From: Dictyostelium discoideum
Taxonomy: Eukaryota
Direction of reading: 5' to 3'
DNA: 64,000 bases
NCBI GenBank assembly: GCA_000004695.1
Contig: CM000155.2
Span: 192,001-256,000, forward strand
A program made the translations under genes and the position numbers. Shown here in pieces: positions 38,589 to 43,527 of this stretch. Numbering within the stretch: position 1 is the first letter of the stretch; every line of letters starts with the position of its first letter. The notes below the pieces were generated by a model. The model had not been told where the DNA came from, did not search any database, and worked only from the letters and a program-made list of their open reading frames with translations.

Positions 38589-41500
38589 TAAGTATTTTAT
38601 TTTATTTTTTTATTATTATTTTCAAATTCAAAAATATAATTTCATACTTACACAAATCTATTTTTATTTTTTTATTTTTGAAAAAAAAAAAAAAAAAGTT
38701 TTTCAAATGAAAAGATGGATATAACAAAGGCATACAATGTAACAGAGGAAAATAAAGCTTACTTATCTTGGAATAAACCTCAATTTACTACAAACTTTTA
38801 TTCACAAAAAACATGGGGTTTACCTCAAAAAGAAAAAGATGGTCCAGATAGTTCAGTTTTTGAAGCTTAGAGAGAAAGAGATATTAAAAAAAAACAAAAA
38901 AAAAAAAAACAAAAAAAAAAAAAAAAAACATATTTTCGCATTTGGCCTTGGATATCCAAGTTTATAATAACATACTAAAAAATCAAATTTACACACAGAT
39001 TTTAGGAATTATAAAATAATATGTATTTACCTTATTTAGGTGATTGATTTATTTGCAATAAAAAAAAAAAAAAAAATGAAATAATAAAATAAATAGTTAT
39101 TTTATATTTTTTTAAAAATAAAACAAATTATAATTAAATTTAAAATTATTATGAATTTAATGTTTTCTAATGGATATCATAATTTTCTATTGTTAAAGTT
39201 ATTATTGGTGGAGGGAGGGGGGGGGGGGTTACTTCTAGATTGGGTGCACCAATTGGTTCCCTATTTGTTGGCAGTGGTGTCACCATCTAATTCTCTAAAA
39301 ACTATTCTTTTTGTATCACCAACTAATTTAAAAGGGATACCCTCCTTGTTTATGAGTATATTGGTTAATTGAACAAGTTTTGATAGCTTTGCACATGCAG
39401 TATCTGCTTTTCTATTCCCAGTATTGATTGATTTCATACCCAATATAGTTTTATTCCAAAGCATCTTGTAAACCAACATCTTTTCTTAATTCTACACCAG
39501 CCATTTTATATTCTCTTGTGAATTTAATTAATACATTTTTTGAATGTTGACCATTGATTATCTTTCTTTTGTTCAACAATAGTTTTTTTAACTATGTTTG
39601 TTGCTGAATTTGTATTTTTTTTACCTTTGGTCATTCTATAGCTAAAAATGGTGTGAAAAAAATTTTCAATTATTTTTTTTTTTAATTTTTTATATAATTA
39701 TTTTTTTTTTATTTTTATATCACTATTTTTTTAATTTTTTCATTATGTGATATTCTTTTTTTTTCTTTCCAAAACATAAAAAAAAAAACCCAATAAAGTT
39801 AAAATTTTTTTTTATTTTCAAATAAATAAAATGACTTATCATAATCAAAAAAAAAAAAAAAACATATTTACACATTTGGCCTTATTTTCATTTAAAATCA
39901 TGATTGTAATCTCCCCTAAATTATAATAAAAAAATAATAGCAAATTGGTCATTTAATTAATTAATTAATTAATTAATTAATTAATTAATTAAAGAATAAT
40001 TTGGATGACAACATCATTAATTATAAATGATGATAGTTTAAGATATTATTCTTTTATTTTCTTTTCCTTAAAAAAAAAAAATCCTTTTTATTTAAGAAAA
40101 GATTTAATCTCTAATCATTGCATTTTTTTAAATAAATTTTATAAAGAAATAAGTTTATTTAATTTTTTTTTTTTTTTTTTTTTTTTTCTCAATCCAACAA
40201 GATATTTTTTTTTTTTAAAATAAAAAAAAATTCATGTGATTTTCAATAAAAATTAGATATTTTGAAAAAAAGAAAAAAAAAAAAAAAACAATGATTGTTT
40301 TAAAAATAGAAAATTGATTTTTTGTTCAAATTAACGAGATATTTTATATATATATTTTAGTAAATTTTTTTGATGATTATACGATAGTTTTTTTAAATCA
40401 CCTTCCAGATATTATAATAATACATACTAAAATAAAATTTTTTTAAAAAAAAAAAAAAAAAATATTTAAAAAAAAAAATATTTAAAAAAAAAAAAATTAA
40501 TATTAAAAAATGATTACCCAAATTTATAAAGTACTTATAAGTTGGTAGTTTGGGGGATTATATGATGAGATTCAAAAAAAAAAATAAAAAAAATAAAAAA
40601 AATAAAAATAAAAATAGGAATGGAAATTAAACTATTTTAAAATAAAATAATCTATGAATAGATTGAAACTCCCAATGTGGGTGATTCACTTAAAAACGCC
40701 CTGATAAACAAGAAACTTCAATTAAATAATAATAATACAAATTAAAAAAAAAAAAATTAATAAATATAATAAACTTACACATACACACACACACCTAAAT
40801 TATTTTCATTTTTCTGCCTTATTAACAATCAAAAAACATCACACAAATTGTGTTTCACATCTTAATTTGTGCTAAAAATTGATAATAGTGGTAGTAGTGT
40901 GGGCCACAACAATAATAGTAAATATAATAATAAAAAAAAAAATTGTGTAAAATGCCAAAAATAATAGCAATCAGTTTTTTCATTTTTTCAGAAAAAAAAA
41001 AAAAAAAAATGATTGTTGATATCGTTGTTATTTTTATTGTGTTGTTGTTATTTATTGAAAAAAAAAAAAAAAAATTGATTGGATTGTAAAGTGGTATTAA
41101 TATAGAATTTCATATAAAAACATACATATATTGCAATATTGATGAAAATTATTTTTCTAATTTTAGATTTAAAAAGAAAAAAAAAATAAAATCAGTTATT
41201 TTAATTTTTTTAAAAAATATTATTTTTTTCATTTTCTAAAAAATAAAATCACCTTTTGATTTAAATATTTTTTTTTTTTAATTATTTTTTTTAATTTTTT
41301 TTTTTTTTTTTTTTCTTGATTTAATTAATAATGGGGTGAAAAGTGTCTTTAGGGGTCTATTTTCATAAAAAATAATTTTTTGGAAAAAAAAGAGGTGAGT
41401 GGGAACACAAAATTATAAAATTTTAGGTGGGTTAATGATTGAATTAAATGTGCGGTGGTGATTTAAACCTCTAATCGTTGAGATTAAATTTAAAACAAAA

Positions 41501-42385
41501 CCTGTGTGGGTGGGTGTGAGATCATAATACAAAATAATAAATATATAAAAATAAATAAAATAACTGGTTTTGAAAGATTTTACGTTTTCTTTTTTTCATC
41601 ATTATTTATATTTAATTTTTTTTTTTTTTTAAAAATAAAAATAAAAAAAAAAAAAAAAAAATAGGAAATAAAATTAAAATAAAAAAAAATATTGTGTTCT
41701 TTATTCTTAATTATTTTTAATTTTAATAAATATAATAAATTAAATATTTAATAATTATTTTTATTATTAATTATATTTTTTTTTGAATTTATTAATTTAT
41801 ACAACTTATATTAAATATATATATGTACAATAAGGTAAGATTAAAAATATTCATCGTTGAAAAAAAAAAAATAATCATTTTTGTAATCTATAGATTCTTT
41901 AATAAATATCACTTAACCCCAAAAAATTTGAATTTCAAGACAATAATTTCAAAATTAATTTATAATAAATATAAAATAAATAAATTAAAAAAAAAATTAA
42001 AAAATTAAAAAATCACTATTTTTACCTGTAATAGTATTATTCTATCATCATATGATCATATAAAACAATAAAATATAAAAATAATAAAAATAATAGTTAA
42101 AAAAAAATAATTTATAATAAAAAAAAAAAAAAAAATAATTATATATATTTATCTCATGCACCACTTTTTTTATTTTAAAATAAATAAAAAAAATAATAGC
42201 ATTTCAATTAATAAACCCTTATAAAGTCAACATTTTTGTGTGAAAGTGTGGGGTGTTTAAAATTAAATGAAAAAAAATCATAAAATTAAAAAATCATTCA
42301 TATAAATAAAAATAAAAAATAAAAAATAATTTTTTAATTAAAACAAATAATTTTCCATTTTATTTTTTTTTTTTTTTGTTTTTAT

Positions 42386-42422
<37 letters not shown>

Positions 42423-43084
42423 CATTCTATTGTATAATTAATTTAATTTATTTATTTATTTTATTTATTTATTTATTTTATTTATTTATTTATTTTATTT
42501 ATTAATTTTATCTATTTAATTTTATTTTATTTTTTTAAATTCCGAACAAAGAGGTTCAAAGAAACGATTTATTTCGGTAGTGTATCAGTTTGATTTTTTT
42601 TTTTTTTTCCTTTTTTAAATTCCTTTCCTTTTTTTTTTTTTAGGATTTTTTTTTTTTTTTTGATTTAATAAAAATAATACCCAAAAACCCAAATTAAATT
42701 AAAAAAAATTAAAAAAAAAAATCTCTTTGCATCGCACTCGCAAAACAATAAAAAAAAACTTTGAAAAAAAAAAAAAAAAAACAATATGGCATTCATGCCC
42801 CCAACCAAAATTTTATCAAAAATATCAAAAAAAAACCAATAAAAAAAAAAAAAAAAAAAATATAATAAAAAAAAGACCATTCACAAAAAAGAAAAATTGT
42901 AAAAATGCCAATCTATTTAGGTCAACACCTAAATTTAGTAAATGAGCAAACAATAATTTTTTTTTTTATTTTTTTTTTTTTTAAAAATAAATAAAAAAAA
43001 AAAAAAAATTGTTTATCTTTCAAACTCTTTTAAATGAAAAAACCCTTTTTGATTTATTTTTTTTCTTTTAACAAATATTTTCAC

Positions 43085-43125
<41 letters not shown>

Positions 43126-43527
43126 AATAAAAAAACTAGACTGTCACTTTTTATAGTAATTCACTTTAATTGTTTTTTTTTTTTCAACAAATTGATGGTT
43201 ATATAAAACTTTTACACCTTTTTTTATTTTTTTTGTTTCCACCAAAGAAATAATATTAACATTTTTTTTTTTATTTTTTTAAAAAATAATATGTAATATT
43301 CCAAAAAAAAAAAAAAAAAAAAATAAATAAATAAATAATAATAACAATAATAATAATATATATAATTCTTAGATTATCATTATAATATTTGCACTCAAAT
43401 ATTCTTTATAAAATATATATTTTTCATAAAGAAGAAAACAATTCAATTTTATTTTATTTTTTTTTTTTTTTTTTCAAACACAAGAATATATACATAAAAA
43501 ATTAAAAAAAATAAAAAAAATAAAAAA

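Follow-up and report, generated by a model that had tools for sequence, protein, structure and literature searches.

The question raised by this locus is what occupies the longest stretch without an open reading frame (ORF) in a 64-kb window of Dictyostelium discoideum nuclear DNA, the window being the whole stretch that we analysed, consistent with chromosome 6 of AX4. In the initial annotation, 38.9-43.5 kb was described as an unusual gene desert with a frameshifted pseudogene or a degraded mobile-element fragment, a poly-G tract and G/GT-rich islands, the latter considered as candidate noncoding RNA (ncRNA) genes. We propose that the intergenic part of this stretch, 38871-43527, is quite probably an ordinary, very AT-rich spacer which holds a dead paralogue of a small orphan gene, a presumably inserted block and G-box words. 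The coordinates of the features are collected in the table.

The three short minus-strand ORFs that had been quoted for 39150-39660 read exactly as given. We joined their three frames into a conceptual product of 125 amino acids (aa), which was used as a query. By HMMER against 1.84 billion representative proteins, exactly two clusters were matched, the ORF's own cluster and P0004 (113 aa, E = 8e-14); the latter match covers query residues 24-120 and therefore spans both frame changes. P0004 and P0007 are recorded as 'hypothetical protein ACTFIW_004509' and 'hypothetical protein ACTFIR_006422', both from Dictyostelium discoideum. A BLASTP comparison of the conceptual product with P0004 gave 45% identity over 103 aa, across both shifts and up to the same C-terminal NK end. 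At its own locus (L003) the ORF of this paralogue extends upstream to 131 aa, and its start, MTKNKK (MTKNKKTNNQKK...), matches the MTKGKK (MTKGKKNTNSAT...) of the window copy. When the 131-aa paralogue was compared with the window by tblastn, we observed three collinear high-scoring segment pairs (HSPs) in three minus-strand frames. The DNA alignment explains the frame changes by a net 20-nt deletion (4 + 16) and a 1-nt insertion in the window copy, and the DNA homology between the two copies is limited to the coding sequence. The copy thus shows both full-length homology to an intact protein-coding gene, alignable through all three frames with the ATG at one end and a shared C-terminal NK-stop at the other, and disabling lesions relative to it; the idea of a frameshifted pseudogene is thereby well supported. 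Around the intact paralogue lie genes for CAD/pyr1-3, an S24 signal peptidase and a SKICH-domain protein, none of them related to the neighbours in the window; the two copies are therefore dispersed, non-syntenic paralogues and not alleles.

Strain variation points in the same direction. The frame lesions recur unchanged in an independent D. discoideum assembly, GCA_054883475.1 (locus L001, with 99.6% identity across 21.9 kb), and are therefore not sequencing errors. We also aligned six Logan contigs assembled from short reads of other runs (L004-L009; SRR26869256-8, SRR26869267, SRR28564540 and SRR28564542) to window positions 38902-39982. They differ from the window by only one substitution in 1.1 kb; in addition, they carry an extra A in the A-run after codon 6, which turns the product into MTKGKKKYKFSNKHS followed by a stop, as well as a 1-nt deletion at 39520 and an in-frame stop. 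Although these six contigs are a small sample, further disabling variants thus segregate in the species, indicating a sequence without coding constraint and giving additional support to the pseudogene.

What is annotated today is the remainder of this copy. Its last 72 codons, 39261-39479(-), correspond to the AX4 gene model DDB_G0291388: the 72-aa ORF is identical to UniProt Q54ER0, and its last 67 residues are identical to XP_635180.1 (P0003, 67 aa). Both entries carry the title 'hypothetical protein DDB_G0291388 [Dictyostelium discoideum AX4]' and are placed on a 3.6-Mb contig. An exact look-up of either product, 67 aa or 72 aa, returned no recorded gene, and a literature search for DDB_G0291388 and the numerically adjacent gene IDs returned nothing relevant.

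To what family does the dead copy belong? A Pfam scan of the conceptual protein, the paralogue and the paralogue's neighbours detected no domain for the family, and a PDB sequence search with the family gave no match. The AlphaFold (AF2) model of the family has five helices, with a predicted local distance difference test (pLDDT) score of 76.6, and a Foldseek comparison of this model with the PDB gave nothing better than E = 0.8. Judged from these searches, the small family is an orphan specific to D. discoideum, and it is predicted to be all-helical. Another homology search with the conceptual protein found nothing; that search returned no D. discoideum proteins, missing even those identical to annotated AX4 ones, and its negatives therefore say nothing on paralogues within the species. 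The intact paralogue (L003 9947-10342) lies within a 2-kb, unusually non-AT stretch (L003 8900-10900) with other tiny ORFs, for example one of 61 aa at L003 9507-9692. On either side of it stands a 17-nt exact repeat, TTTTTAAAACACAAAAA (L003 9196 and 10627), but this repeat of the paralogue locus is only marginally significant.

How did the dead copy come to lie next to an RRM-protein gene? It is bracketed by a direct repeat whose cores are identical at 18 of 21 positions; both read CATATTT and CATTTGGCCTT, separated by TCG in copy 1 and by ACA in copy 2. At least 16 A precede each copy, so that the repeat measures 21 nt, or 37 nt with the A-run. The 21-nt pattern with its 18 specified bases occurs exactly twice in the 64 kb, and both copies are present in every sampled strain and absent from the paralogue locus. 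The bracketed block, 38950-39862, comprises, besides the dead gene, about 230 nt on its 5' side and about 310 nt on its 3' side. A perfect 14-bp palindrome straddles the junction of repeat copy 1 with the block; by a rough estimate, about 0.005 such GC-containing palindromes are expected by chance in the spacer. At the other end, the A16 run 39847-39862 adjoins repeat copy 2, with an AATAAA about 20 nt before it. Such a repeat around the block suggests an insertion just downstream of the RRM gene, of which it would be the target-site duplication. No terminal inverted repeats were seen when the two block ends were compared by eye, and a tRNA scan of the window found no tRNA gene.

The limits of the spacer had to be corrected on its left side. 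As had been claimed, there is no ORF longer than 75 aa on either strand at 38.9-43.5 kb: ATG-initiated ORFs of at least 76 aa are missing throughout 38589-43527 (4939 bp), and no other gap of this kind in the window is as long. The leftmost 280 bp of this stretch, however, belong to the end of the RRM gene and are not intergenic. Indeed, the translation of 38700-38870, YFSNEKMDITKAYNVTEENKAYLSWNKP..., agrees with the C-terminus of the D. purpureum orthologue P0001, YFSKEKTDITNAYNVNEDNKAYKSWN; this is a conserved exon of the RRM gene, and the true spacer is therefore 38871-43527 (4.66 kb). The RRM gene model in GCA_054883475.1 (L001, about 5078) ends at window position 38588, with a TAG formed across a GTAAGT donor at 38586-38588. 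Splicing to 38700 adds a final exon of 57 codons that is conserved in D. purpureum, and the model is therefore truncated. The homology search with the RRM gene returned only D. purpureum, whose contig ends at this gene, and therefore no orthologous spacer is available from that species. No genes are called in the spacer in GCA_054883475.1.

Although the longest, this stretch is no outlier, because by the same ORF criterion the window holds a second gap of 4383 bp (1391-5773) and four more exceeding 2 kb. The window as a whole is extremely AT-rich, with poly-N/Q in its coding regions. The statements that spacers elsewhere are below 1 kb and that this region is an unusual gene desert were thus wrong and overstated, respectively. 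The spacer 1391-5773, with a divergent PI3/PI4-kinase-like gene on one side and a bZIP gene on the other, carries 16 matches to the GBF consensus and is a 'desert' like that of 38.9-43.5 kb.

On the right, the spacer is the upstream region of a gene for a low-complexity protein of 919 aa. This protein has no Pfam domain, and a homology search with its de-repeated sequence returned no orthologue. At about 43456-43527, a T-run and an A-rich leader resemble the core promoter and 5' untranslated region that are usual in Dictyostelium, and would be those of this gene. Within the spacer, at 42542-42836, the window and L001 differ by 16 single-base changes clustered in 300 bp, and in all of them the minority base is replaced by that of the surrounding homopolymer (in T-runs C>T, in A-runs C>A or T>A). 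Such a pattern suggests long-read polishing error in L001 rather than real variation.

Features of the spacer and its surroundings (positions in the 64-kb window)
Feature	Position	Strand	Remark
CorA-type transporter gene	34.7-36.9 kb		gene order around the spacer
RRM-protein gene	37.2-38.9 kb		left neighbour of the spacer
Last exon and stop codon of the RRM-protein gene	38700-38870	+	left edge of the true spacer
Direct repeat copy 1: A16 then CATATTTTCGCATTTGGCCTT	38913-38949 (core 38929-38949)	+	about 60 nt past the RRM stop codon
Perfect 14-bp palindrome CTTGGATATCCAAG	38947-38960	.	straddles the junction of repeat copy 1 and block; its own reverse complement
G-quadruplex-prone tract GGTGGAGGGAG12	39201-39239	+	poly-G 39217-39228; 33 nt past the dead gene's stop codon
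Frameshifted copy (pseudogene) of the small orphan gene	39261-39635	-	HMMER, BLASTP, tblastn, DNA alignment
tblastn HSP 1, aa 1-32	39634-39536	-	
tblastn HSP 2, aa about 35-68	about 39560-39450	-	
tblastn HSP 3, aa 69-131	39449-39264	-	
Direct repeat copy 2: A16 then CATATTTACACATTTGGCCTT	39847-39883 (core 39863-39883)	+	934 bp from copy 1
(TTAA)n microsatellite	39955-39993	.	Logan contigs break here
G-box-like word TGTGGGT, then GTGATTCAC	40676-40689	+	'palindromic core' of the initial annotation; arms 4 bp
G/GT-rich islands TGGGGTG, GAGGTGAGTGGGA, GGTGGGTT, GGTGGTG, TGTGTGGGTGGGTGTG	41332-41518	+	
G-box-like word GTGTGGGGTGTTT	42246-42258	+	
Gene for 919-aa low-complexity protein	43528-46287	+	gene call in GCA_054883475.1; the spacer lies upstream of it
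Nup98-96 gene			beyond the 919-aa gene, 43528-46287

We then considered the G/GT-rich words. Those reported at 41330-41520 are present, but they do not form a striking cluster above background. The consensus of the GBF G-box is (T/G)G(T/G)G(T/G)G(T/G), or KGKGKGK, and closely spaced groups of it occur in sigN promoters (PMC2257962). Exact KGKGKGK matches in the spacer lie at 40676, at 41426-41432, at 41503-41517 (five overlapping) and at 42247/42250, so that its words do fit the sequence of G-box/CA-rich elements (CAEs). Over the window, 80 exact matches were counted where 42 would be expected from shuffled sequence, and nearly all spacers have a share of them. The density of islands is 4.7/kb in the target spacer versus 2.6-5.4/kb in the other true spacers, and clusters of at least four islands per 200 bp occur in six spacers, random placement giving one in 99% of trials. 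By a pentamer count the islands at 41.3-41.5 kb had appeared as a significant cluster, which the broader island definition and random placement ruled out; an apparent cluster of 10 islands proved to be the coding sequence of the Nup98 FG repeats. The G/GT islands are a general property of these spacers, made of G-box/CA-rich words typical of Dictyostelium, and most likely they would serve as sites of GBF-type transcription factors for the flanking genes and not as RNA genes. A literature search for the G-rich strings returned nothing relevant. Three numerically adjacent gene IDs, which need not follow map order, were absent from the chromatin immunoprecipitation sequencing supplement for SpaA, a factor other than GBF (PMC5923282). 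As to the 'palindromic core' gtgggtgattcac described at 40660-40700, its arms have only 4 bp (GTGA.TCAC), and no GC-containing inverted repeat with arms of at least 8 nt and loops of up to 60 nt was found in the spacer.

The poly-G tract lies in the 3' flank of the dead gene, whose own strand is C-rich there. Its presence was correctly noted, but its run has 12 nt, at 39217-39228, instead of 13 nt at 39213-39226. It is the longest G/C homopolymer of the window, and nowhere in the window except in the tract, 39201-39239, does G4Hunter give 2.0 or more over 25 nt (the threshold of PMC6511855), the maximum being 2.6. The number of G is 12 in the window, 11 in L001 and 12-13 in the six Logan contigs. 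The Logan contigs also have an extra G-rich segment of 27 nt, GGGGTACTAAAAAAGGGGAGGAGACAG, just before the poly-G, which is absent from the window and L001 and is bounded by GGGG microhomology. The length variation is consistent with slippage at a neutral site. The second strongest motif prone to form a G-quadruplex (G4) in the window is the C-rich AACCCCCCCACCTACCACCCAACTCACCAC at 12639-12675, which scores -1.96 by G4Hunter and lies in the spacer that precedes a formin-type gene.

Taken together, the stretch would be a spacer running from the 3' end of the RRM-protein gene to where the 919-aa low-complexity gene starts, and its sole gene-like content would be the dead paralogue of the 113/131-aa orphan gene, the intact copy of which sits at a non-syntenic locus. 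The deletion and the insertion would have split the coding sequence over three frames, and automatic annotation would have kept only the last 72 codons as DDB_G0291388. The 0.9-kb block with the dead copy would have been inserted downstream of the RRM gene, leaving the direct repeat as a target-site duplication; the poly-G would be a G4-prone and slippage-prone tract in the 3' flank of the dead gene, and the G/GT islands presumably sites for GBF-type factors acting on the flanking genes.

Several observations weigh against this explanation. The insertion is read from one repeat pair, no empty site was found, and the repeat, at 21-37 nt, is longer than the target-site duplications of TRE5-A, which measure 10-16 bp (PMC9012585). 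The A-run beside copy 2 would fit the poly(A) tail only of a plus-strand RNA, and the gene copy is on the minus strand. The intact paralogue was seen in two D. discoideum assemblies other than AX4, and GBF binding of the islands is predicted from consensus matches. In addition, the C-terminal ORF of 72 codons is intact and identical in all sampled strains, which would allow some residual function.

Could DDB_G0291388 then be a functional, shortened gene, its 72-aa ORF being translated from its own ATG into a small protein with the final two of the family's helices? Both AX4 and UniProt list it as a protein, its ORF is unchanged in the window, L001 and the six Logan contigs, and this segment is the best conserved relative to the paralogue (48% identity). 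We nevertheless consider such a gene unlikely, since about 60 N-terminal residues and three of the five predicted helices are missing, and since the upstream two-thirds are still recognisable yet frame-broken and polymorphic for frame-breaking indels, which is a signature of decay and not of a new start. The invariance of the 219 nt carries no weight because strain diversity is so low, with one single-nucleotide polymorphism per 1.1 kb, and no short-form homologue was found by HMMER outside the ORF's own cluster among the 1.84 billion representatives. It is similarly doubtful that the block 38950-39862 represents an uncatalogued mobile element, either as a fragment of it or as a non-autonomous copy, which would carry a gene for a small helical protein and have the 21-37-nt repeat as its target-site duplication. 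Such an element would account for the significant direct repeat, for a palindrome placed exactly at one junction, for the A16 run that abuts repeat copy 2 some 20 nt after an AATAAA and for the tiny ORFs and the 17-nt repeat, itself only marginally significant, around the intact paralogue. However, the family amounts to two protein clusters among the representatives and is therefore not multi-copy, and the homology to the paralogue stops at the ends of the coding sequence. Neither similarity to a transposase, reverse transcriptase or integrase nor terminal inverted repeats (by eye, and in the spacer scan for arms of at least 8 nt) were seen, no tRNA gene lies nearby, in contrast to TRE elements, and both the length of the repeat relative to TRE5-A and an A-run oriented opposite to the gene speak against it. 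The suggestion of a degraded mobile-element fragment also finds no backing in similarity to annotated transposon proteins, in Pfam domains or in the presence of a tRNA gene. With regard to the catalogued dictyostelid repeats (DIRS-1, Skipper, DGLT-A, Tdd, DDT and thug), the evidence is indirect: the conceptual protein lacks a Pfam domain, and two clusters of hypothetical proteins from D. discoideum are all the relatives that it has. There is a slim chance that the block records an uncharacterised way of moving gene-sized DNA in Dictyostelium, given a dead copy of an orphan helical-protein gene, an unusually long and near-perfect repeat of 21-37 nt on both sides and a perfect 14-bp palindrome exactly at one junction. 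A new non-autonomous element could be at work, or the capture of a gene fragment mediated by a hairpin or a staggered break; if so, P0004-type genes would be the cargo of such events.

The G-rich sequences could also be functional in their own right. For the tract 39201-39239, a regulatory role as a G-quadruplex, and not as a by-product in the flank of a dead gene, would be in keeping with its being the sole sequence in 64 kb to reach a G4Hunter score of 2.0, with a maximum of 2.6. At the same threshold AX4 has a mere 249 G4 motifs genome-wide, relatively enriched in intergenic DNA and promoters, and selected ones fold in vitro and respond to a G4 ligand (PMC6511855). We consider this role very unlikely. 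With 249 motifs in the genome, one per 64 kb is near the average and therefore unremarkable, and the intergenic density of 0.015/kb gives about 0.35 expected in 23 kb of spacers; furthermore the tract is highly polymorphic between strains, including the 27-nt indel, and its position is not that of a promoter, being in the 3' flank of a pseudogene and about 350 nt beyond the RRM gene. Least probable of all is the proposal that the G/GT islands at 41330-41520, at 40660-40700, or at both, are small ncRNA genes, to which we give hardly any credence. They are indeed isolated non-AT islands in an otherwise 85% AT sequence, and words with one mismatch to the Dictyostelium upstream sequence element (DUSE) overlap TGTGGGT at 40675-40682 and 41503-41511. 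But the sequence 60 nt downstream of these words is homopolymeric A/T, and the same words occur at the same density in all other spacers. Searching for the DUSE, [AT]CCCA[CT]AA, as had been advised, gave no exact match in 38.9-43.5 kb; in genes of this type it is expected about 60 nt upstream. The only one in the 64 kb, ACCCACAA at 2314-2321(-), lies inside the CA-rich element caacccactcaccacacccacaaag and is followed by poly-A/(AAAT)n, and is therefore no ncRNA promoter; DUSE and G-box/CAE words overlap in sequence space. No Rfam family reached the gathering score in the whole window, and at E <= 10 the region gave only chance-level hits to CRISPR-DR5 and REN-SRE. The 11-nt motif of Class I RNAs, CCUUACAGCAA, has no match within two mismatches in the region. 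Folding of both strands gave minimum free energy z scores of +0.68 and -0.83 for 41325-41525 and of -1.36 and -0.69 for 40520-40720, indistinguishable from those of shuffled sequences. With neither an Rfam match, a DUSE, a Class I motif nor a folding signal, the reading of the islands as ncRNA genes is not upheld, and a spacer with a dead gene copy and G-box words is the explanation that we retain.

The wider significance of this locus is small, and its practical value lies in the correction of annotations. The entry DDB_G0291388 (Q54ER0) needs a flag saying that it is what remains of the ORF in a frameshifted paralogue of ACTFIW_004509 / ACTFIR_006422 and not a hypothetical protein in its own right, and the RRM gene model of one recent assembly (GCA_054883475.1) lacks a conserved last exon. 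G/GT islands and poly-G in Dictyostelium spacers should not lead to an ncRNA call without a DUSE or expression evidence. Finally, the repeat-bracketed block offers a small, testable example of the insertion of a gene copy in a compact genome.

Compared with known systems, the spacer islands resemble Class I and DUSE-driven RNA genes only in being short non-AT islands in AT-rich spacers, and differ from Class I RNAs in having no DUSE, 11-nt CCUUACAGCAA, terminal stem or other structure signal, or Rfam match. The poly-G tract is like the G4Hunter motifs of D. discoideum described by Saad et al. in 2019 (PMC6511855) in its score of 2.6, above 2.0, its intergenic position and its oligo-G type. It stands apart from them in that its length differs between strains and that it is G4-prone by score alone; the supplementary text of PMC6511855, as far as it was accessible, does not contain its sequence. 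The words TGTGTGGGTGGGTGTG, GGTGGGT and TGTGGGG fit the consensus of GBF G-boxes and CA-rich elements and are sometimes closely spaced, as in the sigN promoters (PMC2257962); unlike those of GBF developmental promoters, they have their nearest start codon at a distance of 1.3-2.9 kb, do not exceed those of the other spacers of the window in frequency or clustering and are candidates by their sequence.

For the block itself, an insertion of the TRE type would call for a tRNA gene within about 50-100 bp and a duplication of 10-16 bp, and neither was found: unlike TRE5-A, with its 10-16-bp duplications next to tRNA genes, this insert has a repeat of 21-37 nt and there is no tRNA gene in 64 kb. 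The resemblance to a processed retro-pseudogene is closer, with a gene-sized insert in a direct repeat (18/21, unique in the window), an A16 at the downstream copy and an AATAAA about 20 nt before it. However, the expected order of a 3' poly(A) followed by the duplication is not observed, the A16 at 39847-39862 being upstream of the minus-strand gene, on its 5' side, and the insert extends beyond the coding sequence by about 230 nt on the upstream side and about 310 nt on the downstream side. The gene's own 3' flank ends without poly(A) at the palindrome beside repeat copy 1, and the parent gene is intronless, so that intron loss is uninformative on retroposition. A duplicated, non-processed pseudogene is not matched in every respect either, since here the parent family is an orphan without Pfam, PDB-sequence or fold match, the copy is just 45% identical to its one known intact relative and, unusually for a simple segmental duplicate, it is bracketed by a long direct repeat. 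With duplicated pseudogenes it nevertheless shares full-length, collinear homology to an intact paralogue of the same species, frameshifts leading to premature stops, indels that are polymorphic among strains, and an annotation that retains only the longest residual ORF.

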